Sequence record: PZ583739.1
DNA length: 64,000 nucleotides
DNA from: a phage
Reading direction: 5' to 3' (one strand)
The position numbers and the translations under genes are program-made. Within the stretch, counting starts at the first letter, position 1. Each line of letters opens with the position of its first letter. Shown here piece by piece: positions 385 through 40,185 of the stretch. The notes beneath the pieces are model-generated. The model was not told the origin of the DNA and made no database searches. It saw only the letters and a program-made list of their open reading frames with translations.

Positions 385-412
385 AATGTATCCAATGTAA
401 GGGTCTAGAACC

Positions 413-438
413 ATTATACAGCCATAAAATTAAAGCAT
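413..438 (-). promoter_or_regulatory. MotA-box middle promoter upstream of uvsY
   Basis: Minus strand reads aTGCTTTA, 12 nt spacer, TATAAT, about 30 nt upstream of the uvsY ATG. Confidence 0.5.
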
Positions 439-827
439 TAACCGTTTTGACTTAGCTGAATCCTGATTTGTTCGAGGGTATCAGGGTCATCAACAATGCT
501 GAACTGAACTGTTACGATAATGGAGTTATCATCATACATAGGGACAACTGCCACCTGTAGATTGCTTATCCTTGGTTCGAAGTTCCGCACCGCGGAGACG
601 ATGTTGCGTTTAATGGTATCTGTGATTAATGGAGTGATATTCTCGAAAAGCTGATTACTTATATCACATCCAAATTCAGGCATAAAAGGCCTTGACCCTT
701 TTCTTGTGGTGATTATTCCCAAAAGACTGTTCTTAACAGACCTTGCACCAGTTACTTTAGCAACGTCTTTATCCCAACTTGTAGATAAGTCGGGAGACAC
801 ATCGCTATACATTTTGTTTATATTCAT
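438..827 (-). CDS. 25: baseplate wedge subunit gp25
   Basis: 129 aa; MNINKMYSDV...LLGIITTRKGSRPFMPEFGCD... matches T4 gp25 (lysozyme-like GPW family) in sequence and length. Confidence 0.9.
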   Translation of the reverse strand: MNINKMYSDVSPDLSTSWDKDVAKVTGARSVKNSLLGIITTRKGSRPFMPEFGCDISNQLFENITPLITDTIKRNIVSAVRNFEPRISNLQVAVVPMYDDNSIIVTVQFSIVDDPDTLEQIRIQLSQNG

Positions 828-1451
828 TTACATAAACTTAAAGAATTCTTTAAGCCCCTTAATTACATGGACAGAATGTGCTCCGCACTCGCAAGAGATA
901 GGAATAGCCATTTGGACCTGTGGCTTGAGAAGTTCTTCTGTTAGTGCATTTATATCATCGAGGGTAATTGCATTGTACAGGTCCTCGATTTCAGCTTCAT
1001 TTAAGTCATCAACAACGATGCGCTCACCGCCTTCCGTGATAATATATTCGATACAACAAGCAATCATTTTTCCTTTATCACCATCTTCAAACAGTCCAGG
1101 ATAACGGAATTTAATTTTAAACGCCCCGAAATCACGAATAACTTCAGACTCATCCACGATGCTTGCGCGACTTATAGTCACAGGAATATCTTGTTCCTTT
1201 CCGCACTCACATACCCATGTATGCTCGACGTTAACAGCTCCGAGACTATTTGCCCAGAGATTAATAAGAAGCAGCTCGGCTTCCTGTTTGTTTAACCCTT
1301 TAGCATCAGTGCATTTATTAAGCAGTTCAATTATTGCAGGTTCCATACGCTTTTCTAATTTTGCCTGAAGCAAATCTTTGTATTCGCGCAAGGTAAAAGC
1401 CCTACAATTTATAGTTTTATTTTTAATTTGGACAATAAATTCATAAGTCAT
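828..1451 (-). CDS. 26: baseplate hub subunit gp26
   Basis: Track ORF 828..1484 starts at TTG; first ATG at 1449-1451 has SD AAGGAG and lies downstream of a late promoter; 207 aa fits T4 gp26 size and position. Confidence 0.75.
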   Translation of the reverse strand: MTYEFIVQIKNKTINCRAFTLREYKDLLQAKLEKRMEPAIIELLNKCTDAKGLNKQEAELLLINLWANSLGAVNVEHTWVCECGKEQDIPVTISRASIVDESEVIRDFGAFKIKFRYPGLFEDGDKGKMIACCIEYIITEGGERIVVDDLNEAEIEDLYNAITLDDINALTEELLKPQVQMAIPISCECGAHSVHVIKGLKEFFKFM

Positions 1452-1468
1452 AATTTGCTCCTTTACTG

Positions 1469-1476
1469 TATTTATA
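1469..1476 (-). promoter_or_regulatory. T4-type late promoter (TATAAATA) for gene 26
   Basis: Plus-strand tatttata at 1469-1476 is TATAAATA on the minus strand, just upstream of the gene 26 SD/ATG. Confidence 0.6.
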
Positions 1477-1480
1477 AATA
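1473..1480 (+). promoter_or_regulatory. T4-type late promoter (TATAAATA) for gene 51
   Basis: tataaata at 1473-1480, 25 nt upstream of the gene 51 ATG; overlaps the divergent gene 26 late promoter. Confidence 0.6.
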
Positions 1481-1504
1481 TCAATAAAGATAAAAGGGGA
1501 TTCT

Positions 1505-2257
1505 ATGGCCAATATCGTAAGATGTGAAATGCCAGACGGAGTTCATCGTTTCAAACCGTTTACAGTCGCTGATTACCGTGATTTACTGCTTGTGCGAAAC
1601 GACATGAACAACAAACCCGTCGAAGAACAAAAACAATTATTAGACGAACTGTTGGAAGATTATTTTGGAGAGTATCCAAAAGCATGGAGGCCTTACATAT
1701 TTCTGAAGGTATTCACTTCCTCTATCGGTAAGACAAAAGTCCCGGTAGCGTTTGAATGTCAAAAATGTAAAAAGACAAAGCAGACTTTGTTTAACCTGAA
1801 TCAGGGTCCATTAGTAAATCCAACGATGGAAACCGCCGGGATAAAAATACAATTTAAGTTCCCTGAAGTGGAATATAAAGATAAGTCAGAGCTTGTCTTG
1901 AATACCATCCAGACTGTCGAAGACTCGGAACAAAAATACAATTGGGAAGACCTTCCTGAAGAAACAAAGATGCAGGTTATCGATGCAATTGATATAGAGA
2001 GCCTCGAAGCACTCCTTAAGAAAATGCATTCGGTTTATATTCCATTTACATATGGCTGTTGTGAAAAGCACAAAACCGAATACACTGACCTGCTTGACGT
2101 CTTTAAGCTTATCCTTAACCCGGATGAAGTCTTTGTATTTTATCAAATTAACCACTTGCTGGTAAAGAATCAATATTCGCTGGATAGCATCATGCATATG
2201 ATTCCTATTGAACGAGGTATTGCTTTATCACTAGTTGAGAAGGACTTGAAAAAATGA
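1505..2257 (+). CDS. 51: baseplate hub assembly protein gp51
   Basis: 250 aa; size and position as T4 gp51; Cys-pair motifs; shares conserved blocks with gp26. Confidence 0.75.
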
Positions 2258-3423
2258 CAGTTAAATCTATGCAGCGCGAAGGCTTTCCTAATATCAGCAT
2301 CCGCCTTTACGAAGATTATGATGCATGGCTTGAGCACCGTTTTGTGGAACTAGCTGCTACCTTTACAACGTTAACCATGCGCGATTCCCTTTACGGAAGA
2401 AATGAAGGTCTCTTGCAATTCTATGATACGAAAAACCTACATACAAAAATGAATGGTGAACAGGTTATTCAGATTTCCGTTAAGAATGCCAACTCTGACC
2501 GAACCCAATCTAGAATATATGGAAGTAAACACTTTGCCGTTTCCGTGGATTCAAAGGGTGATAACATAATTACAATTCAGTTGGCTCCTATTCACGAAAT
2601 TGAAGACTTGAAATTTAGTCGTATGTTTTACCCGAGCGTACAGGAAACATTAGTCGAAATGGCCGGGGTAATTTATCAAGATAGACCATTACTTTCCCCA
2701 CCAATAAACGGCATAAACGTTTATGCTCCTAACGTTCCATGGTGTGATTCGATGCACCAATATATGGAATTCATAAGGGAAGTTGGCCTGTCGGTAGAAA
2801 CTGATAAATTTGTTTTTGTATGGGAAGATATTGATGGGATAAGTATCCAGGATTATGAATGGTTAACATCACAAGAGCCAATTAATTTTGTGGTGGGGGA
2901 ACCTCGATTGGTTGGGCAATTTGTACAAAACCTGACTACTCCTTTAGCCTTCGATTTTGAATGGTTAACAAAGGCAAACCAACACACAAGAAAACCATAC
3001 GAAAACGCAACTGTGTATGCGCATTCATTCCTTGATAAGAACGCAACCAGAATAACTTTTGGGGAAGGACAAAACAGTATTCTGGTATCTCGTTCCGGTG
3101 GCTATGCAGATTACACATACCGAAATGGTTTCGAGGAAGCACAACGATTGATAACTATGTCACAATACGACGGTTACGCGCATTGCAAAACATACGGGAA
3201 CTTTGAACTGACCCCGGGTGATAAGATAAATTTCTTTGACCCTAAGAACCAATTCAAATATGATTTTTACGTAGACGAAGTTATTCATGAAGTGAGTAAC
3301 AATACATCAATTACAAACCTCTATATGTTTACCAATGGTAAGCCTATCGAAGTTGAAGAACCACCGAAGGTTAAAAATGAACTTAAAACTGATTCTGCCG
3401 ACGAAGAAAATACAGCTGGGTGA
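2254..3423 (+). CDS. 27: baseplate hub subunit gp27
   Basis: 389 aa; length and position match T4 gp27; ATGA overlap with gene 51 stop. Confidence 0.85.
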
Positions 3424-3895
3424 TAAAGAGATTCATGTTCCTAAGCTTGGTCTCAAGCATCACAATCTGATTAAAAACGAACCTAACCCATACGCTGCAT
3501 TAAGAAAGATTATGCAATCGATATTCCCTAATCTTACAGCAGCCGAATCCGACTTTGTATCTTTACATCTCCTGGAATTCAATGGTAAGCTAAAAGACAA
3601 ACGCGAGATTAATGGATTTACATATAAGCTGGATGATGTTTATATCTGTCAGCGCCTTGAATTTTCTTATCAAGGGAAGACATTTAAATTCCGCTCCAAT
3701 AAACCGTATGAAGAATTCGGACCAGTTGACAATCTCCTGGAGACCCTTTATCTCGGGGAAGATGTTCCAGACTTTCTGGATATGCCTGCTTTTGTTGCTA
3801 AGTGGGCAGACGATATCACAAGCACATTAGCAATCCCGGGCCCGAATGGTCCTGTTAAGGGGTTACTGAAAATAATGGAACTCCTAAATGAATAA
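3377..3895 (+). CDS. 28: baseplate hub distal subunit gp28
   Basis: Track ORF starts at ATG 3335 with no SD; ATG at 3377 has SD GAAGG and gives 172 aa, close to T4 gp28 (177 aa); start uncertain. Confidence 0.7.
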
Positions 3896-5633
3896 GAACT
3901 CCGAACAAACAAGCTTCAGACGCGGTGGACCTAATAAAAAGCTTATCGAAGAATTAGCACCACAAAGGAGGGCGGAAGCCCTCTCTGCTGAACAGAATGA
4001 TGAATTATCGAATCTGAATACAACCCTTACAAATACTCAGGCTGCAACCGAACTTGTATCGGAAGCTATTGAGGATAAGGGTAATCAGATTATTGAGAAT
4101 ATCCAAACCAATAATGGAGTCCTCCAGGATATCAGTGCTGGGGTCGAACTGACGGCCGAAGCCACCGAGAAGACTCAACAAGGGATTAAAAACCTCACGG
4201 ATATTCTCTCGGATAAGCTCGACAAACTCAGTGCAATGATAAGCGGTAAAATAGGCGTCACGTCTCCTGTGGCTGGTTCTGAAAGCCTTAAACCTGTGGA
4301 AAATGCACTACCAGAGCCTGAAGAGAATAAGCCCACAGCGAGCGTTCCGGCGCTCATACCGCCAGAAGAACAAAAGCCCGACGCTGACTTCATTCCGGAA
4401 CCAGAACAGCCAAAAACCGATGCAGAAGGTAAAGAGACTAATACCTGGTCACTTGGTGATAAGCTTGATACCCTTTCGAAGATAACCGAAAAAGGATTTA
4501 AGGCATCGGTTTCTGTTGCTGACCGAATCTCCGGGATGCTGTTCAAATATACAATTACGGCAGCAGCCGAAGCAGCCAAGCTTATTGGTGGATTATTGTT
4601 GTTGGTATTCGGTATCGATGCGATACGAGTTTACTTCCAATATTTCATGAAGCAATTCGAAAAAGGATGGGCCGAATTTAATGATAAGTTCAAAGAATGG
4701 GGTCCGTTGCTCGAAGGGTTAATGACCTGGGCTAAGAACGCTGAAGCTATGTTCAGTGAAAGAAATTGGCTTGGACTGGCAGAAGCTATTATCCGTGGAA
4801 TGGTCAACTTAACGAAGAATATGGCTCAACTTCTTATGCTTGGTATTTCAAAATTAATCTCGGCTATTTTAAGTAAAATCCCTGGGATGGGTGATTTAGC
4901 AGATAATGTGGAAGCCTCAGCTTTGATGTCTTATCAGCAAAATACAGGGGCAACTCTGGATGATGAAGACCAAACCAAGATAGCAAAATATCATGACAAA
5001 CGTTCGGCCGAAGCAATGGAAGCTGCAGAGAAGATGAATAAGAAGTATAAGGATAAACCTGAACTAATTAATCAAGCCGAAAAATATGGTAACCTTACCA
5101 AGGAACAAGCTGACCAGCTTCGCGCGGGTGGGATTGACACAAGCTTCAGAGACCTTCCGGAAGAAGAACGTCTGGACTATTTCAAGAAGCGTGACAAAGC
5201 ACAGGCTGATATTATTCGTTTGACCCAAACTGCTGACAACCTAATGAAGCCAGACGCAACCGATAAAAAGAATGCGATGGAAATGAGAGCTAACATTGAA
5301 AAACAATTAGCTGACCCAGCTATGGCAAAAGGTGGAGCTCCGAAAGACCTGAATATGCGCACCCTGTTGGAAAAACTTGATAAGTCTCTCGAGAAGTTCA
5401 AAGACGAACCGAAAGTTAAACCGCCGGATGTTAAGACTTCTCCGGATGCACAACAAGCTGCGAAGGTTGACGAAGGTATGAAGGCCAAAGAAAATAAATA
5501 CAAGGATGCACCAGCTCAGGCACAAATTAACACGGTCAATAATATTCAGAAGACTTCCAGGACGCAATACAATATGCCTCCTCAAAGTTCAACCCCTGCC
5601 CCTGGCATGAGACAGGCCACGAGAATTAACTAA
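3888..5633 (+). CDS. 29: baseplate hub subunit / tail length determinant gp29
   Basis: 581 aa; coiled-coil and hydrophobic central segment; length and position match T4 gp29. Confidence 0.8.
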   Translation: MNKNSEQTSFRRGGPNKKLIEELAPQRRAEALSAEQNDELSNLNTTLTNTQAATELVSEAIEDKGNQIIENIQTNNGVLQDISAGVELTAEATEKTQQGIKNLTDILSDKLDKLSAMISGKIGVTSPVAGSESLKPVENALPEPEENKPTASVPALIPPEEQKPDADFIPEPEQPKTDAEGKETNTWSLGDKLDTLSKITEKGFKASVSVADRISGMLFKYTITAAAEAAKLIGGLLLLVFGIDAIRVYFQYFMKQFEKGWAEFNDKFKEWGPLLEGLMTWAKNAEAMFSERNWLGLAEAIIRGMVNLTKNMAQLLMLGISKLISAILSKIPGMGDLADNVEASALMSYQQNTGATLDDEDQTKIAKYHDKRSAEAMEAAEKMNKKYKDKPELINQAEKYGNLTKEQADQLRAGGIDTSFRDLPEEERLDYFKKRDKAQADIIRLTQTADNLMKPDATDKKNAMEMRANIEKQLADPAMAKGGAPKDLNMRTLLEKLDKSLEKFKDEPKVKPPDVKTSPDAQQAAKVDEGMKAKENKYKDAPAQAQINTVNNIQKTSRTQYNMPPQSSTPAPGMRQATRIN

Positions 5634-5641
5634 GGAATAAC

Positions 5642-6736
5642 ATGAAAGTAAAAGAACTCGATATTGATATTGCGGGTTTATTTAACGGAGGTTCTAAGAC
5701 CTCCGCTGGGCAGTCAAAAGCTGCCCAGACTCAAGCTACTATTGTGGCGCAATATCCAGCAGAACGAGCTTCCGGTAATGATTCTTCAGATGATATGCGA
5801 GTTAATGACCTTTATAAAAATGGTCTGTTATTCACGGCATACAATTTCAGTTCAAGAACATCTCCGGAATTACGCTCAGACAGGTCAAGCCAATTGACTT
5901 CATTAAAGAAAGTTTCCAATGGTGCTTCATTTAACCCGGTTAAAAGTTTAACATCTTTTGCTAAATCGAAATTAACCGGCGCTGGCTCAACCGGTAAAAG
6001 TTTTGATTCAAACGCTGTTGCAAATATCCTGTTGCCTCGTTCGAAGTCCGATGTAGAATCCGTATCGCATCGATTCAACGATGTTGGTGAGTCTCTTATT
6101 ACGAAAGGTGGTGGCTCAGCTACAGGTATTCTTAGTAACATCGCATCGACTGCAGTTTTCGGCGCACTCGAATCAGTTACAAACGGTGTAATGGCCGACC
6201 ATGGCGAACAGATTTACACAACCGCGCGAAGCATGTATGCTGGTCCCGATAACAGGACAAAAGTTTATACCTGGGAAATGACTCCACGTTCGGCCCAGGA
6301 CTTAATCCAGATAGTGAAGATATACGAGATTTTTAACTATTACTCCTATGGGGAAACCGGTAAAAGTTCGTTTGCTTCCGAGCTGAAAGATAAAATCGAT
6401 ACATGGTATAAATCCACCTTCAAAAAGGAAGCAATCGATAACTTTGACGGCAAGTTGCTCGGTGAAGAGATAACAAGCTTCCTAACGAACGTTCTGGTGG
6501 TCTCTAACCCTACTATCTGGTATATCCGCAACTTCGGTGATACAAGCTCGTACGATGGCCGTGGGGAGCTATTTGGGCCGTGCCAGATTCAGAGCATAAG
6601 ATTCGATAAATCCCCGGATGGTCATTTCGGTGGATTAGCTATTGCTCCTAACCTGCCATCGACTTTTGTACTTGAAATCACTTTCCGTGAAATCATTACG
6701 CTTAACCGTGGCTCATTATATGCGGAAGGTTTCTAA
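5642..6736 (+). CDS. 48: baseplate tail tube cap gp48
   Basis: 364 aa, same length as T4 gp48; syntenic. Confidence 0.8.
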   Translation: MKVKELDIDIAGLFNGGSKTSAGQSKAAQTQATIVAQYPAERASGNDSSDDMRVNDLYKNGLLFTAYNFSSRTSPELRSDRSSQLTSLKKVSNGASFNPVKSLTSFAKSKLTGAGSTGKSFDSNAVANILLPRSKSDVESVSHRFNDVGESLITKGGGSATGILSNIASTAVFGALESVTNGVMADHGEQIYTTARSMYAGPDNRTKVYTWEMTPRSAQDLIQIVKIYEIFNYYSYGETGKSSFASELKDKIDTWYKSTFKKEAIDNFDGKLLGEEITSFLTNVLVVSNPTIWYIRNFGDTSSYDGRGELFGPCQIQSIRFDKSPDGHFGGLAIAPNLPSTFVLEITFREIITLNRGSLYAEGF

Positions 6737-7695
6737 TGTTTACTTTACAAGAATTTCAAACACAAGCGATTAATATCGACTTACAAAGGAATAACCTTTT
6801 TAGTGTGGTCTTCGCGACCACACCTTCCTCCAAATCTCAGAATCTTCTGGACCAGTTTGGTGGCGCATTATTCAGCAACCTTCCTGTTAACTCAGATTGG
6901 TTCGGATTAACACAAGGTGACTTAACTCAAGGGATAACAACTCTTGTTACTGCCGGGACACAAAAGCTTATTCGCAAATCAGGGATAAGCAAATATCTTA
7001 TCGGGGCAATGAGTAACCGTGTTGTGCAATCATTATTGGGGGAATTTGAGGTTGGTACTTACCTGCTTGATTTCTTTAATATGGCATATCCAACGGCTGG
7101 TCTATTAGTTCACTCTGTTAAGCTTCCGGATAACACATTGAACTACGAAATGGACCTTAACCATAATGCACCAAATATCAAGATAACAGGGAGAGAATAT
7201 TCTCCATTGGTATTGAGCTTCAGAATGGATTCAGAGGCAGGGAACTTTAGAGCATTTAACGATTGGGTCAACTCTGTACAGGACCCAGTTACCCAGCTAA
7301 GGGCCTTGCCTGAAGACGTTGAAGCTGATATTCAGGTTAACCTTCATTCGCGTAACGGATTGCCGCATACGGTTGTTATGTTAACTGGTTGTGTTCCTGT
7401 AAGTGTATCAGCGCCTGAATTGAGTTATGAAGGGGATAATCAGATAGCTACATTTGATGTAACTTTTGCTTATCGCGTTATGTCAACTGGTGCGGTGGGA
7501 AGAGCTGCGGCATTGGAATGGTTGGAAGATAAGGTTATTAAGGGTGTATCTGGTATTAGTTCAGATAACAACTTGAACTCAGAAGTTGCCAAATTGAGCC
7601 GCTTGTCTGGTGCTCAATCTGGATTAACAAGTCTATACAATACGTTTACTGGTTCTGGGAGAACAGTCTCTGGTGGAAGTCAACGTATATTATAA
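6736..7695 (+). CDS. 54: baseplate tail tube initiator gp54
   Basis: 319 aa; T4 gp54 is about 320 aa; syntenic; followed by terminator. Confidence 0.8.
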   Translation: MFTLQEFQTQAINIDLQRNNLFSVVFATTPSSKSQNLLDQFGGALFSNLPVNSDWFGLTQGDLTQGITTLVTAGTQKLIRKSGISKYLIGAMSNRVVQSLLGEFEVGTYLLDFFNMAYPTAGLLVHSVKLPDNTLNYEMDLNHNAPNIKITGREYSPLVLSFRMDSEAGNFRAFNDWVNSVQDPVTQLRALPEDVEADIQVNLHSRNGLPHTVVMLTGCVPVSVSAPELSYEGDNQIATFDVTFAYRVMSTGAVGRAAALEWLEDKVIKGVSGISSDNNLNSEVAKLSRLSGAQSGLTSLYNTFTGSGRTVSGGSQRIL

Positions 7696-25120: not shown

Positions 25121-27376
25121 TCAAAGTTTACAGGCGGAGCAGTCTTCTGCTTTAGGAGCTTCGATTTCGTAATCGTCTGTTCCGGAACCATCTCTAGTGT
25201 TATGATAATAAAGGTTTTTCCCACCAAAATACCAGAAGTACATCAAGTCGTCAAGCATAACTGACATCGGAACTTTTCCTTTCGGATAATTCTGCGGGTC
25301 ATAATACGTATTTGCCGATGCTGACTGACAAATCCATTTCAACATAATCGCGACTTGGGTCAGATAAGGTTTGTTACCCTGCTTAGCCAGTACCCATGCG
25401 TAATCGTACAATCCTTTATTGTGTTCGATATTCGGAACAACCTGGTTAAAGGAACCTTCTTTACTTTCCTTGATACTTACTGGACCGCGCGGAGGTTCGA
25501 TACCGTTTGTACTGTTGGAAACTTGGGAAGATGACTCACAAGGCATAAGTGCTGATAATGTGCTATTACGGATGCCATGTTCAACCAGGTCTTCCCGCAA
25601 CTGCGCCCAGTCACAAACGTAGTTTGGAGCTGCGATTTGGTCAATCTTTTTATTGTACCAGTCGATAGGTAATTCGCCTCGAGCCCAACGAGTGTCTGAA
25701 TAATATTCGCAAGGTCCTTTTTCTTTGGCGAGCTTGATTGATGCTCGGATAAGGCCATATTGTAATCTCTCGAACAGTTCATGCGTTAAATCGTTTGCAT
25801 CAGCGTAGGAAGCGAAATTGCTTGCCAACCATGCAGCATAGTTAGTAACCCCAACACCCAGGTTGCGGCGTTTTTTGGCTTTCAGAGCTTCTTTAACCGG
25901 ATAACCCTGGTAGTCCAACAGGTTATCAAGAGCACGAACCTGAACTTCAGCCAGCTCGTTAATCTTATCTTGGTCCTGCCAGTCAAAACTATCCAAAACA
26001 AATGCAGACAATGTGCACAATCCGATTTCAGCATCTTCGCTGTTCACATCAGTAGTCGGGATTGCAATTTCGCAGCAAAGGTTTGATTGACGAATCGGAG
26101 CCTTGTCGCGGATGAACGGAGTGTAGTCATTCACGTTATCGACGAACTGTGGATAAACCCTGGCCGTACCGGAACGTTCGGTCATGAATAATTCAAATAC
26201 ATCTTTTGCTTTGATGCGCTTCTTACGAACCGTCGGGTCTTTTTCTAAGGCTTCATATAACTCGCGGAATTTATCCGGGTTATCAAAATATGAATAATAC
26301 AATTCACCGCCAGCTTCGTGTGGACTAAACAGAGTGATGTAATCATTCTTAGCCAGTCGTTCCATCATCAGGTTATTCAGCTGGACGCCATAGTCCATAT
26401 GTCTGATGCGGTTTTCTTCAACGCCCTTGTTGTTCTTCAGAACGAGTAAATTTTCAACTTCCAAATGCCAAATAGGATAATAAGCAGTAGCAGCGCCGCC
26501 ACGGATTCCACCTTGTGAACATGATTTAACAGCCGTTTGGAAATGTTTCCAGAACGGAATAACACCAGTATGCTTGACTTCGCCCATACCGATTTTCGAA
26601 CCTTCAGCACGAATCATGCCAACGTTGATACCGATACCCGCACGCTTACTGATATATTCGATGATTGAATTAGCAGTCTTATTAATTGACTTCAGGGAGT
26701 CAGCCGCTTCGATAACCACACAGGAACTGAACTGCCTGGTAGGTGTTCTGGCGCCCGCCATGATAGGTGTGGGCAACGAAACCTGTCGGGTGGATACTGC
26801 ATCATAAAAACGGCAAACGTGCTTCAGGCGGTCCGTTGGTTCATCCTGGTGCAGTGCCATGCCGATAGCCATGATAGCGAATTGTGGAGTCTCGTAGATT
26901 TTACCAGTGGTTTTATCTTTAACCAGGTATTTCTCTTTAAGTTGCATCGCGCCTGCATAAGTCAGGTCAAAATCACGTTCATGCTTGATACGAGATTCCA
27001 GGTAAGTAATCTCTTCGGCGGAGTAGCTTGACAACAGCTCCGGGTCGTATTTACCTTCATTAACACAATAAGAAATCTGGTCAATAAAAGAACGCGGCTC
27101 AAATTGTCCATAAACATCTTTACGCAGAGCAAACATCGTAGCTTTGGCTGCAACATATTGGTAATCTGGTTCTTCAACCGAGATAAGCCCAGCAGACACT
27201 TTGATGATAACCGTCTGAATATCGCGAGTAGTCATACCATCGCGCAGATGTGGTTTGATTGTTTCATATAATTCGTATGGGTCGATATTGGTTCCTTCAC
27301 ATGACCAAGAAAGAACTTTAATAATTTTCTGGCCATCAAAATCTTGGGATACACCACTACTTTTTTGTACTTGCAT
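25121..27376 (-). CDS. nrdA: ribonucleotide reductase large subunit (aerobic, class Ia)
   Basis: 751 aa; conserved NLCCEI/GLCTLSA-type active-site blocks; T4 NrdA is 754 aa. Confidence 0.95.
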   Translation of the reverse strand: MQVQKSSGVSQDFDGQKIIKVLSWSCEGTNIDPYELYETIKPHLRDGMTTRDIQTVIIKVSAGLISVEEPDYQYVAAKATMFALRKDVYGQFEPRSFIDQISYCVNEGKYDPELLSSYSAEEITYLESRIKHERDFDLTYAGAMQLKEKYLVKDKTTGKIYETPQFAIMAIGMALHQDEPTDRLKHVCRFYDAVSTRQVSLPTPIMAGARTPTRQFSSCVVIEAADSLKSINKTANSIIEYISKRAGIGINVGMIRAEGSKIGMGEVKHTGVIPFWKHFQTAVKSCSQGGIRGGAATAYYPIWHLEVENLLVLKNNKGVEENRIRHMDYGVQLNNLMMERLAKNDYITLFSPHEAGGELYYSYFDNPDKFRELYEALEKDPTVRKKRIKAKDVFELFMTERSGTARVYPQFVDNVNDYTPFIRDKAPIRQSNLCCEIAIPTTDVNSEDAEIGLCTLSAFVLDSFDWQDQDKINELAEVQVRALDNLLDYQGYPVKEALKAKKRRNLGVGVTNYAAWLASNFASYADANDLTHELFERLQYGLIRASIKLAKEKGPCEYYSDTRWARGELPIDWYNKKIDQIAAPNYVCDWAQLREDLVEHGIRNSTLSALMPCESSSQVSNSTNGIEPPRGPVSIKESKEGSFNQVVPNIEHNKGLYDYAWVLAKQGNKPYLTQVAIMLKWICQSASANTYYDPQNYPKGKVPMSVMLDDLMYFWYFGGKNLYYHNTRDGSGTDDYEIEAPKAEDCSACKL

Positions 27377-32740: not shown

Positions 32741-32800
32741 ATGATTTTCCTTAGATTATTTGATTTTTAGCAGTTGTTTTGATTACGTATTAATTATACT

Positions 32801-33469
32801 TCAAAGTGATTGAAGCGTTATTTGACAGTTTTTAACGGTCTCGATGAACAATTTACGAGCTTCAAGAGAATCTATATTTAAGATTTTCTTATAGGCATTT
32901 AGTTTGGTTGAATACTTTTCCCAAACCAAGTCGTTAGTCTGTTCATCATGTTTATTTATAATACCTAAAAATGAATCAAGCAAACAAAACGTTTCAAATG
33001 AGATAACATTCGATTGGAGAAGTTTGAAAATATAACTTGTATTCACTTTAGTATTATACTCGAAAATCTCTTGGAGCGATTTGACTTCGACTTTCTTACT
33101 GAAGTAATAGATGTTCTTTATATCATCTTCGTATACTTGTCTAATTCTTTTAAGTCGGCCAATGTATTCTCTATAAAATATCAGAGCATCGGCATCACTT
33201 ATATCGCCTATCCATGCATCCTGGTTTGCAACCAGGTTTGACATGAATATTAACGTTAATTCTTTAAGAGTGTACTTATCGCTAAGCTTTTCGAAAAAAT
33301 ACTTATCGCGACGTTTTTGATAAGCACTATCGGAGATTCGCATGGTCCAGTTATATTTGATAATATCATAACGACCCGAAAAATGCTGTTTGATGGATAA
33401 GTACAGTTGGTATACTGATTTACCATTTATATATCGGTTGTTATTTGGAGGCATGCGAATCGTAATCAT
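32801..33469 (-). CDS. 59: helicase loader gp59
   Basis: 222 aa; YQKRRDKYFF, LVANQDAWIGDISDADAL, EIFEYN blocks match T4 gp59. Confidence 0.85.
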   Translation of the reverse strand: MITIRMPPNNNRYINGKSVYQLYLSIKQHFSGRYDIIKYNWTMRISDSAYQKRRDKYFFEKLSDKYTLKELTLIFMSNLVANQDAWIGDISDADALIFYREYIGRLKRIRQVYEDDIKNIYYFSKKVEVKSLQEIFEYNTKVNTSYIFKLLQSNVISFETFCLLDSFLGIINKHDEQTNDLVWEKYSTKLNAYKKILNIDSLEARKLFIETVKNCQITLQSL

Positions 33470-34017: not shown

Positions 34018-34962
34018 TTAATAAAATTCAGCAATGTTTGCAGTTAGTTTAGACAAACCAGACTTAACAAAGTAAGGATAAACTTTACTTTTGGCTGGGA
34101 TAACGTAATTATTATATCGTTCTAAGATTGAAGCGGATATTTCCGTTGGGATAAAGTCCATATCAATCAACAATTGGTTTTCACAGAATCTATTATATTG
34201 CTCTTCTGTTAAAAGCGTTTTCAGCACGTCATGGTCGTAATAGTTGAGAGCAATTTGTTCAAGCTCGGCTGCACGGGTTGGTGGAGTACGTTCACCTTCT
34301 TCATGAGTATAATAAAAATCACCACGAACCTTGATGCTTGACACGTTATCTTTTTTGTCACCTTTAACAACCTTTGTCACGCAATCCATAAGGGCATCGC
34401 CTGATTTAGTTTTGACATATTTTTTCTGCATCGGGGACCATTGTTTCACCCCAGGGAATTTATGCAACTGTGTAAAGTCACCATCCGAAGAAACAATCAT
34501 AACCGGATGTCCTAGACTAGTGAGCAACTTCGTTAATACTGCAATATGGTCATCAGCCTCGACTTTATCCATATTCATCACGATGTAAGGCATGTATTTT
34601 TCCATTTCATCGATGATGATGTGCATGGCAGCATGTAGACCTTCCCAATCGAATTGAGACTCTTCACGAGCCTTTGCACGGTTTTTCTTATAATAATAAG
34701 ATTTAGTCCGGCGCCAATAGCCATTCTTCGAGTTATCAACACAAATAATTGGAATTGTATAACCAAGCTTTTTGAACTGTACGATATTTTTTCGGATAGA
34801 GTTCAGAACCAAGTGTCTGGTCATTGCAGTTGTTACTTTCGGAAAGCCTGCGTCTTTGCCGAATTCCTGAAAGGCTGCAGCCATGATGAGCTGACTAAAA
34901 TCGAGTAACTGAAAACCTTCTTTTTGACGGTCTTCTTCAGGGAGTAAAAAATCTAAATTCAT
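34018..34962 (-). CDS. rnh: RNase H (FEN-1 family 5'-3' exonuclease)
   Basis: 314 aa; blocks CVDNSKNGYWRR, YYKKNRAKAREES, VEADDHIAVL, SSDGDFTQL match T4 RNase H. Confidence 0.9.
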   Translation of the reverse strand: MNLDFLLPEEDRQKEGFQLLDFSQLIMAAAFQEFGKDAGFPKVTTAMTRHLVLNSIRKNIVQFKKLGYTIPIICVDNSKNGYWRRTKSYYYKKNRAKAREESQFDWEGLHAAMHIIIDEMEKYMPYIVMNMDKVEADDHIAVLTKLLTSLGHPVMIVSSDGDFTQLHKFPGVKQWSPMQKKYVKTKSGDALMDCVTKVVKGDKKDNVSSIKVRGDFYYTHEEGERTPPTRAAELEQIALNYYDHDVLKTLLTEEQYNRFCENQLLIDMDFIPTEISASILERYNNYVIPAKSKVYPYFVKSGLSKLTANIAEFY

Positions 34963-35019: not shown

Positions 35020-35027
35020 TATAAATA
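35020..35027 (+). promoter_or_regulatory. T4-type late promoter (TATAAATA) for gene 34
   Basis: tataaata 31 nt upstream of the gene 34 ATG. Confidence 0.6.
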
Positions 35028-35057: not shown

Positions 35058-38000
35058 ATGGCCGATATTTTAAAACCAGCATTCAGAGCAACATCCGGTC
35101 TCGATGCTGCTGGTGAGAAAGTCATTAATGTCGCAAAAGCTGATTACTCAGTTTTATCAGACGGCGTTAACGTAGGTTTCTTTATAGAAGAAAACACAAT
35201 TCAACAATATGATGCGACGCGCGGATACAAAAAGAACTTTGCGGTTATTAATGATAACCGTATTTGGGTTGCTCAACGTGATATTCCGGCACCAGCTGGA
35301 GCATTTACCCCTCAGTATTGGTTAGCAACTCGTACTGACCCTAAATGGGAAACTGTTGCATCTCCAACTCGTCAGCTTAGCTCCGGGGAATTTATCGCAG
35401 TCGACTCAGCTGCAAGCTTTACCACATTTACATTGCCTCCGAACCCGACTGATGGTGATACCATCGTTATTAAAGATATCGGCGGTAATACCGGTTATAA
35501 TGAAATTAAAGTTCAATCGAGCAATGTGCCTGGTCAAGGTAACCAAAAGATTGTTCGCTTTGGTAATCAGTATCCGGAAATTTTAATTACCAAACCATTC
35601 TCTTATAACATGCTTATCTTTTCAAACCGCTTATGGCAATTTTGGGAAGCTGGCAACGAAGAACGTGGCATCAGAATAGAACCATCGACAGGTCGTTTCC
35701 ATGCACAAGCTGGCGACTTTATTATGCGTCGTTATACAACTGGTGCACCGATTACTTTCATTCTTCCTAAGTATGCAAACCAGGGTGATATTGTCAAATC
35801 TGTTGATATCGATGGCATGGGACCAACGTTCCACCTGATGGTTGAAACCTTTGACACCAGTTCCAGTCTTGGGAAAGCTGGCCAGCATCAAATGGAATTC
35901 CGTACCACAGGTGATGGTTTCTTCGTTTATGATGCTGCCGAAAAACTCTGGCATGTTTGGGACGGTGATTTTAAAACTCGTCTTCGCGTTATTCGCGACA
36001 GCGTTAAACTTTTACCAAACGAAAGTGTCATTGTATTTGGCGAAGATAACTCAACTCCGGCAACGATTAATATCGATTTGCCAACTAATGTTTTGCAAGG
36101 CGATATTGTTAAGATTGCGCTGAACTATCTCCGTAAATCGCAGACTGTTAATATAAGAGCTGCTGTTGGCGATAAGATTGCAACTGACATTAAATTGCTG
36201 CAATTCCCTAAACGTTCCGAGTATCCACCAGATACAACTTGGGTGATGGTTGATTCATTGACCTTTAATGGCAACATCAGTTATACTCCGGTTATTGAAT
36301 TATCATATGCAGAAGATGCAGTGTCTGGAACAAGTTATTGGGTTGTCGCTCAGAACGTCCCGACTGTCGAACGAGTTGACTCATTAAATGATTCCACGCG
36401 TACACGTCTTGGTGTTATTGCTCTGGCAAACCAGACTCAGGCAAACGTTGACCATGAAAATAACCCAGAAAAAGAACTCGCAATTACCCCTCAGACTTTA
36501 GCCAACCGTGTTGCTAAAGAGAACCAACGAGGCATTGCCAGAATCGCAACGACTGCTCAAGTAAATCAGAACAGTGATTTTGCATTTGTTGATGATGTAA
36601 TTATTTCTCCGAAAAAACTCAATGAACGTACGGCAACAGAAACGAGACGCGGGCTCGCAGAACTCGCCACACAGCAAGAAACCGATGCGGGTGTAGATGA
36701 TACCACAATTATAACTCCAAAGAAACTGCAAGCTCGCCAGGGCTCAGAATCGCTATCCGGTATTGTAACTTACGTTTCAACGACTGGTGCAACTCCTGCT
36801 GCTTCGCGTGAATTAAATGGTACAAACGTTTATAATAAAAATACGGTTAATCTGGTTGTTTCTCCGAAAGCTCTTGACCAGTACAAAGCTACTTACACCC
36901 AACAAGGTGCGGTTATTCTTGCGGTTGAAAGTGAAGTAATTGCTGGTACTTCTCAATCTGGATGGGCAAACGCAGTCGTTACTCCAGAAATGTTGCATCG
37001 CAAAACTGCTCTTGATTCCCGTATCGGTTTAATCGAGATTGCAACTCAAGTAGAAACAGATGCAGGAACCGATTATACCAGAGCTGTGACTCCTAAAACG
37101 TTAAATGACCGTAAAGCATCAGAAACGTTAACCGGCATAGCCGAGATTGCTACGCAATCAGAATTTGATACTGGAACTGATGATACTCGTATCTCAACTC
37201 CATTAAAAATTAAAAATAGATTTAATAATACTGCTCGTACTTCTGTTAATGCATTAAGTGGTTTAGTAGAAACAGGGACGCTCTGGGACCATTATAGCCT
37301 GAATATTCTTGAAGCAAATGAGACTCAGCGTGGTACGGCAAGATTAGCAACTCAGGGTGAAGTCAATACCGGCACTGACGATAAAACAATCGTTACCCCG
37401 CTTAAATTGATGTCGAAAAAAGCCACTGAAAATGCCGAAGGTATTGTTCGCATCGCGACAAACGCAGAAGCAACAGCAGGTACATCAAAAGTCTTGGCCA
37501 TCAGTCCGTCAGCGCTGAAATATATTGCACAAACGGAAACAACCTGGGAAGCATCTGAAACCCTACGTGGATTTGTTCGTTTATCTTCTGGTACAGCTAC
37601 TTCGGCCGCAACTACAACGACTGGTGCAGGATTTACATATGCAAATGGCGTGTATACTCCGGACCCAAGTAAACTGGTTAGCTACGCAAAATCTGGATAT
37701 GCAGTTTCACCTTACGAATTAAACCGCGTATTGCAAAACTTCCTACCGATAAATGCGATGGCTGTTAATGCTGAAAAACTGGATAACCTTGATTCGACCC
37801 AGTTTATTCGTCGTGATATTGCTCAGACTGTTGAAGGTGTGTTAACTCTTACCAAACAGACAAATATATCTGCTCCGGTTGTATCGACGAGCACTGCAGT
37901 GTTTACTGATGTAACGGCTGGCACTTCGACGTTCGGAACTGTGAACGTTGTTAACGGAACTAACAAGTGGAAAATCACCGCTCCTTCCACCGGAACGACA

Positions 38001-40177: not shown

Positions 40178-40185
40178 TATAAATA
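40178..40185 (+). promoter_or_regulatory. T4-type late promoter (TATAAATA) for gene 36
   Basis: tataaata 36 nt upstream of the gene 36 ATG. Confidence 0.6.

Follow-up and report, generated by a model that had tools for sequence, protein, structure and literature searches.

A palindromic pair of probable late promoters between the paralogous baseplate hub genes 26 and 51 of a T4-like phage

The gap between genes 26 and 51

This analysis concerns a 53-bp intergenic gap (1452-1504) in a 64,000-nucleotide stretch of phage DNA (sequence record PZ583739.1; the whole stretch is called the window here), together with gp26 and gp51, the products of the two genes that diverge from it. Positions 400-3500 of the window are a 100%, full-length match by megablast to Escherichia phage vB_EcoM_RZ (MW598459 / NC_070780; RZ below), a T4-like phage classified as Straboviridae, Tevenvirinae, Gaprivervirus. 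The gene order in the annotation of MW598459 is uvsY-25-26 on the minus strand and 51-27-28-29-48-54 on the plus strand, and the locus is the classical T4 baseplate-hub cluster. For gene 26 we use the start annotated in MW598459, a minus-strand ATG at 1451-1449; a 218-aa open reading frame (ORF) that starts at a TTG is merely mechanical and was set aside. The features at and beside the gap are as follows.

828-1451, minus strand: gene 26, 207 aa, baseplate hub protein or assembly chaperone, PF12322
1458-1463, minus strand: gene 26 ribosome-binding site, AAGGAG, 6 nt before the ATG
1469-1476, minus strand: putative late promoter box TATAAATA of the leftward unit, 17 nt from the gene 26 ATG
1469-1480, both strands: perfect 12-bp palindrome TATTTATAAATA, consisting of the two boxes with their 4-bp overlap
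1473-1480, plus strand: putative late promoter box TATAAATA of the rightward unit, 24 nt from the gene 51 ATG
1494-1500, plus strand: gene 51 ribosome-binding site, AAGGGGA, 4 nt before the ATG
1505-2257, plus strand: gene 51, 250 aa, baseplate hub assembly catalyst, PF12322 plus a C-terminal helical domain

A preliminary description of this DNA had placed TATAAATA on both strands of a 53-bp gap and had read the two copies as back-to-back divergent late promoters that drive genes 26 and 51. An exact-match scan recovers both boxes where they had been placed, within the string gtatttataaata at 1468-1480, and the length of the gap is likewise confirmed. The T4 late promoter is a short motif, TATAAATA, at -13 to -6 (PMC1524935); it is read by RNA polymerase together with gp55 and gp33 and activated by the gp45 sliding clamp, with transcripts in either direction (PMC2988020). 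The boxes in the gap agree with this T4-type, gp55-dependent class in that both are exact 8-mers in the consensus position. They also lie where late promoters should lie, at distances of 17 and 24 nt from the start codons of late-gene orthologs, with the ribosome-binding sites downstream of the predicted transcription starts. The T4 orthologs in question, genes 25, 26, 51, 27, 28, and 29, belong to the late class in both RNA and protein (PMC9697503 supplement). Moreover, genes 26 and 51 diverge from the 53-bp gap, so each needs a promoter of its own there. The window encodes gp33, annotated as "late promoter transcription accessory protein," at 35477-35767. Genes 55 and 45 are located outside the window and are expected in any Tevenvirinae genome.

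The palindrome is rare. TATTTATAAATA occurs once in the 64 kb, versus 0.03 occurrences expected, and its chance expectation across the 42 positions of the 26/51 gap is ~2e-5. A search for larger inverted repeats around the gap gave AT-rich imperfect matches only.

We compared the 26/51 region in eleven T4-like lineages: RZ itself, T4, Yersinia phage fPS-90, Bp7 (Dhakavirus), EcS1 (Kagamiyamavirus), Serratia X20 (Winklervirus), Klebsiella PWKp18 (Marfavirus), Klebsiella KP01 (Jiaodavirus), Acinetobacter PhT2, Acinetobacter Ac42 (Twarogvirinae), and Yersinia phiR1-RT (Tegunavirus). The gap is 48-65 bp long in all eleven, and TATTTATAAATA is exact in ten, that is, in every lineage named except Ac42. 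Outside the palindrome, the bases of the gap diverge from lineage to lineage, save for the two ribosome-binding sites: the purine-rich block of the gene 26 site has an equivalent in 11 of 11 lineages, and the gene 51 site reads AAGGAG or AGAGGA in other lineages. The palindrome also moves within the gap, standing 16-30 nt from the gene 26 ATG and 16-24 nt from the gene 51 ATG. The promoter pair is thus conserved while its flanks drift, a pattern that extends to Ac42 in the form of one exact box per strand. In that phage, the canonical position reads CATTTATAAATA, which breaks the palindrome and leaves a minus-strand box of 7/8, and a second, exact minus-strand box stands 6 bp to the right, giving a "crossing" layout. 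The loss of the palindrome together with the new exact box implies that selection acts on one exact TATAAATA per strand and not on the palindrome. With this conservation counted, the pair is far beyond chance.

Environmental viral contigs repeat the arrangement. A search of IMG/VR that required the conserved gene 51 start within 10-30 bp after the palindrome matched 79 loci. The downstream ORF is of the gp51 type in 45 of these, and in 42 of those 45 contigs, a gp26-type ORF diverges on the opposite side.

Taken together, the exact consensus, the conservation, and the late class of the T4 orthologs make it very probable that the 53-bp gap holds back-to-back T4-type late promoters, orthologous to the late promoters of T4 genes 26 and 51. 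Public annotation agrees with this. In the record of fPS-90 (NC_055723), two features named "predicted late promoter" lie on opposite strands with an overlap of 4 bp, in between the gp26 and gp51 orthologs; the T4 RefSeq record has no promoter features annotated. Scarlato et al. in 1989 (Virology 171:475) reportedly mapped by experiment the overlapping promoters from which the T4 baseplate gene cluster is divergently transcribed, and Gruidl et al. in 1991 are said to have described overlapping 26-25-uvsY transcription units in the same phage. The divergent late promoters proposed in the preliminary description are supported on all of these counts.

Could the palindrome be mainly something else, the site of a dimeric DNA-binding protein such as a DsbA operator, with the likeness to late promoters secondary? 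Its symmetry is perfect over 12 bp, DsbA is encoded in the window, and DsbA is known to bind, with low affinity, A/T-rich sites that overlap two late promoters (PMC2988020). However, TATTTATAAATA necessarily results whenever two TATAAATA boxes on opposite strands share 4 bp, so the symmetry needs no further cause. Ac42 loses the palindrome and retains one exact box per strand in a different register, and the gap between T4 genes 4 and 53 has two boxes without a palindrome. Finally, both genes need a promoter, and the sole other conserved parts of the gap are the ribosome-binding sites. We consider a dimer site very unlikely for these reasons.

Just as improbable, in our judgment, is that only one box works while its partner simply comes with the AT-rich palindrome, the gene on that side being transcribed from elsewhere. 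A sigma-70-like match at the start of gene 51 (10/12; minus strand, 1528-1500; TTCACA, 17 nt, TAGAAT) could in principle feed gene 26. Yet the region has 5 sigma-70-like matches versus 6.5 in shuffled sequence, neither T4 nor the other lineages conserve the -10 hexamer of this one, and its -35 part is conserved merely as coding sequence; the match is probably due to chance. Because the genes are divergent, read-through from one into the other cannot occur. In addition, both boxes are exact in 10 of the 11 lineages, Ac42 restores an exact minus-strand box, and the T4 genes on both sides are late.

Relationship of gp26 and gp51

The genes on either side of the gap are themselves related: gp26 and gp51 are ancient paralogs of one family, PF12322. 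The preliminary description had suspected an old duplication from common motifs, and these are present (FTLREYKDLL and KIKFRYP in gp26, KIQFKFP in gp51, and paired Cys blocks in both). It had named pairwise alignment and structure prediction as the way to check the idea, and both bear it out. BLASTP aligns the two proteins over 181 residues with 24% identity (E = 1e-7). Each matches PF12322 (T4_baseplate) nearly from end to end, gp26 with 193.8 bits over model positions 3-219 (4e-57) and gp51 with 199.1 bits over positions 1-219 (1e-58), relative to a gathering threshold of 24.5 bits. Both also match phrog_150 (baseplate hub) over their full length, and the PHROG-annotated T4 record places phrog=150 on both gene 26 and gene 51.

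Comparison of whole families strengthens the case. With alignments of 42 gp26-type and 47 gp51-type proteins, hhalign gives a probability of 99.0% and E = 3.8e-18 over 184 columns, and PF12322 is matched by all 89 of these homologs. Hidden Markov models (HMMs) of the two families find each other reciprocally at 1e-14 and 8e-14, whereas gp25, gp27, gp28, gp29, and gp48 stay at noise level against the same models in hmmsearch. The AlphaFold models are confident (pLDDT 93.6 for gp26 and 92.9 for gp51), and their elements follow one order, in which a beta-hairpin and three helices are followed by a beta-sheet block, a helix and a strand, then two more helices, a further beta-hairpin, and one more helix. 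When the gp26 model is compared with viral models by Foldseek, gp51-type proteins of ~250 aa are matched with probability 1.0 and TM-scores of 0.65-0.72 normalised to query length. If the similarity were convergent or compositional instead of the result of gene duplication, one would have to explain colinearity over the 184 hhalign columns, reciprocal HMM matches that the neighboring proteins do not share, a single Pfam model matched end to end by both proteins at ~1e-57, and a common order of secondary structure that leads Foldseek from gp26 to gp51-type models. Convergence on this scale has a negligible probability, and the reading of gp26 and gp51 as products of a duplication stands.

To judge from the sequences, the duplication is old. 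Identity to RZ within each family is 44-69% versus 24% between the families, and both types are found in Tevenvirinae and Twarogvirinae and, by record names, also in Campylobacter phages. The proteins differ in that gp51 carries an additional helical domain at its C terminus (residues ~204-250, with three helices at ~208-249 in the model). This domain is PF28602 in precomputed domain lists, and phrog_634 matches gp51 over residues 147-250.

The cysteines are a further common feature. Residues C81, C83, C187, and C189 of gp26 show little or no variation in the gp26 family, as do C85, C88, C185, and C186 of gp51 in the gp51 family, and in hhalign of the family alignments, the four of gp26 align with the four of gp51. 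In gp26, they sit in the turns between strands 74-80 and 86-92 and between strands 178-186 and 192-198, and those of gp51 are at the matching turns. The pairs thus occupy two beta-hairpin turns ~100 residues apart, as in a zinc ribbon. Rubredoxin or zinc-ribbon matches were seen for a few gp51 homologs, all of them sub-threshold.

Two extensions were tried and are unsupported. One would make gp28 (3377-3895, PF11110) a third paralog of gp26 and gp51. By eye, gp28 is colinear with them, with an N-terminal strand-turn-helix, an acidic helix, and an FKFRxP motif, and hhalign with a 3-sequence profile reached P = 0.012. A 39-sequence profile made the signal weaker, with P = 0.062 for gp26 and 0.069 for gp51 and a probability of <1%. 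The other would give gp26 and gp51 a tail-assembly-chaperone fold; against known phage tail assembly chaperones (TAC), no significant sequence or structural similarity of either protein was found.

An internal start within gene 26 is a separate matter. T4 annotates an in-frame product gp26' (95 aa), which begins at an ATT at residue 114 (IKFRYP...). The gene 26 of RZ has the same ATT at residue 113 (1104-1124, minus strand; KIKFRYP), with a GGGG run ~9 nt upstream, and from this resemblance, the internal start may be conserved in RZ.

Transcription units and a possible mode of action

The -13 to -6 rule predicts where each promoter would start its transcript. These predicted starts and the other genes of the two units are as follows.

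1463, minus strand: predicted leftward transcription start, 6 nt beyond the box, giving a 12-nt leader that starts at the ribosome-binding site
1486, plus strand: predicted rightward transcription start, giving a 19-nt leader
438-827, minus strand: gene 25, baseplate wedge, PF04965, which abuts gene 26 and comes second in the leftward unit
up to 414, minus strand: uvsY, as annotated in MW598459, possibly reached by the leftward unit
2254-3423, plus strand: gene 27
3377-3895, plus strand: gene 28
3888-5633, plus strand: gene 29, the tape-measure gene
5642-7695, plus strand: genes 48 and 54

Genes 27, 28, 29, 48, and 54 (2254-7695, plus strand) are packed closely or overlap and make up the rest of the rightward hub unit. 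An exact-match scan found no further TATAAATA within 2254-7695.

In the scheme that we favor, each promoter would be just the 8-bp TATAAATA, read by the host RNA polymerase, with the phage protein gp55 as its sigma factor and gp33 as co-activator, and activated by the gp45 clamp. Such an element has no need for a -35 partner, and two of them can therefore pack onto opposite strands with a 4-bp overlap. From the minus-strand box would come a short-leader mRNA for gene 26 and gene 25, possibly reaching on into uvsY, and from the plus-strand box an mRNA for genes 51-27-28-29-48-54, so that the genes for the baseplate's central hub would be turned on together late in infection. On this reading, the site marks the start of both late baseplate-hub transcription units in this T4-like phage, and it is a clean example of how an 8-bp promoter permits two-way transcription from ~50 bp.

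The geometry of the pair suggests a further consequence. The predicted starts are 23 bp apart and the melted regions abut, which implies that only one polymerase at a time could use each DNA copy. Under the clamp-polarity rule (PMC2988020), a promoter is activated by the gp45 clamp only if the loading nick is in its non-transcribed strand. At the 26/51 site, the orientation of the arriving clamp would then pick the direction of firing on each DNA copy. If such a switch exists, the nicked strand, and hence the direction of replication, would determine how many leftward (26-25) transcripts are made relative to rightward (51-27-28-29-48-54) ones. The T4 record places the replication origin oriF at the uvsY promoter region (position 1322 of our T4 locus L013, T4 115321), ~1.1 kb to the left of the promoter pair; this position bears only on the speculation that fork direction biases the choice of late promoter.

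On the protein side, gp26 and gp51 are listed as hub assembly chaperones (PMC3004832). By analogy with the G and GT proteins of lambda, gp26, the short form, and gp51, the long form required in catalytic amounts only, may be zinc-binding chaperones of gp29, a pair arising by duplication and not by frameshift. These two readings, in which the promoter pair is a polarity-sensing switch and gp26/gp51 are a pair of zinc-binding chaperones for gp29, the tape measure protein, are ones that we hold to be unlikely, and they are put forward as speculations.

Several points weigh against the overall interpretation. The enrichment of TATAAATA across the window is weak, with 9 copies observed versus 4.5 expected and at least 9 copies in 6 of 100 shuffles, so the motif by itself is no proof of a promoter. 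The sequences establish the two boxes, their conservation, and the homology of gp26 and gp51; activity of the promoters in RZ is argued by orthology with T4. The leftward start predicted here coincides with the opening base of the ribosome-binding site, which makes for an unusually short leader, and the true start may be off by one or two bases. That the two promoters exclude each other and that clamp polarity chooses between them are predictions for the 26/51 site that we infer from the general mechanism of late transcription. The four-cysteine set is probably a zinc site, as judged from the cysteine positions and the sub-threshold matches. The confident models (pLDDT ~93), the four-cysteine site, and the C-terminal domain of gp51 are starting points for work on the role of gp26 and gp51 in hub assembly and are not in themselves a discovery.

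Elsewhere in the window, exact copies of TATAAATA stand just upstream of alt (10169, minus strand) and of rIII (15852, minus strand). A further copy is inside gene 37 (45047, plus strand), ~1.2 kb upstream of the next gene. Three more lie in coding DNA: at 32953-32960 on the minus strand, within a hypothetical gene (32758-33120); at 35020-35027 on the plus strand, antisense within gene 59; and at 40178-40185 on the plus strand, within gene 34. These three could be internal or antisense late promoters, or they could be due to chance. In the same scan of the window, gene 34 (37069) has no exact TATAAATA preceding it.

Two other observations lie apart from the hub cluster. In ~20 environmental viral contigs of IMG/VR, TATTTATAAATAAA(C/A).. 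occurs 9-13 nt upstream of an unrelated ORF of ~380 aa that starts with MANI (loci L017, L025, L027, L030-L033, L040, L046, L050, L054, L065, L066, L070, L076, L078, L080, L083, and L092); this arrangement may represent a conserved promoter in a different group of phages. Within the window, homing endonuclease genes are annotated at 25620-26348, between nrdA and nrdB, and at 34192-34830 on the minus strand, between genes 32 and 59. Both are mobile insertions typical of T4-like genomes.

Comparison with known systems

The paralogy of gp26 and gp51 is already recorded in Pfam PF12322 and PHROG 150, of which both proteins are full-length members far above threshold; the one departure is the extra C-terminal domain of gp51, which gp26 is without. 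A parallel in another phage is the G/GT pair of lambda-type tail assembly chaperones, a short and a long form that act on the tape measure protein, and it is a functional analogy only. In both cases, there are two related proteins, one of which (gp51 here) has a C-terminal extension. Both pairs are also needed for assembly, neither is clearly a virion component, and their genes are near the tape-measure gene (gene 29 here).

The promoter pair, too, is already known, as the ortholog of the T4 26/51 late promoters, and it is annotated in at least one public record. T4 (loci L003 and L013) has the same gene pair, the same TATTTATAAATA, the same 4-bp overlap, and a gap of ~50 bp. It differs in spacing, with the palindrome 21 and 17 nt from the ATGs versus 17 and 24 nt here. 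The flanking intergenic bases differ as well, and the coding sequence is only ~70% identical. The fPS-90 genome (NC_055723) likewise has an opposite-strand late promoter pair with a 4-bp overlap between its gp26 and gp51 orthologs; fPS-90 is a Tequatrovirus, and its promoter annotation is a prediction and not an experiment. The finding in RZ is thus correct but ordinary, with little consequence beyond correct annotation.

T4 has a second compact divergent late pair. The gap between genes 4 and 53 (L014, NC_000866 77338-77384) has two exact TATAAATA boxes on opposite strands within 47 bp, between divergent late morphogenesis genes. In contrast to the 26/51 gap, the boxes there are 7 bp apart and crossing, each downstream of the start of the other, and they form no palindrome. 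The 26/51 gap of Ac42 has a crossing layout similar to this one. Compact two-way late promoters are therefore not unique to the gap between genes 26 and 51.

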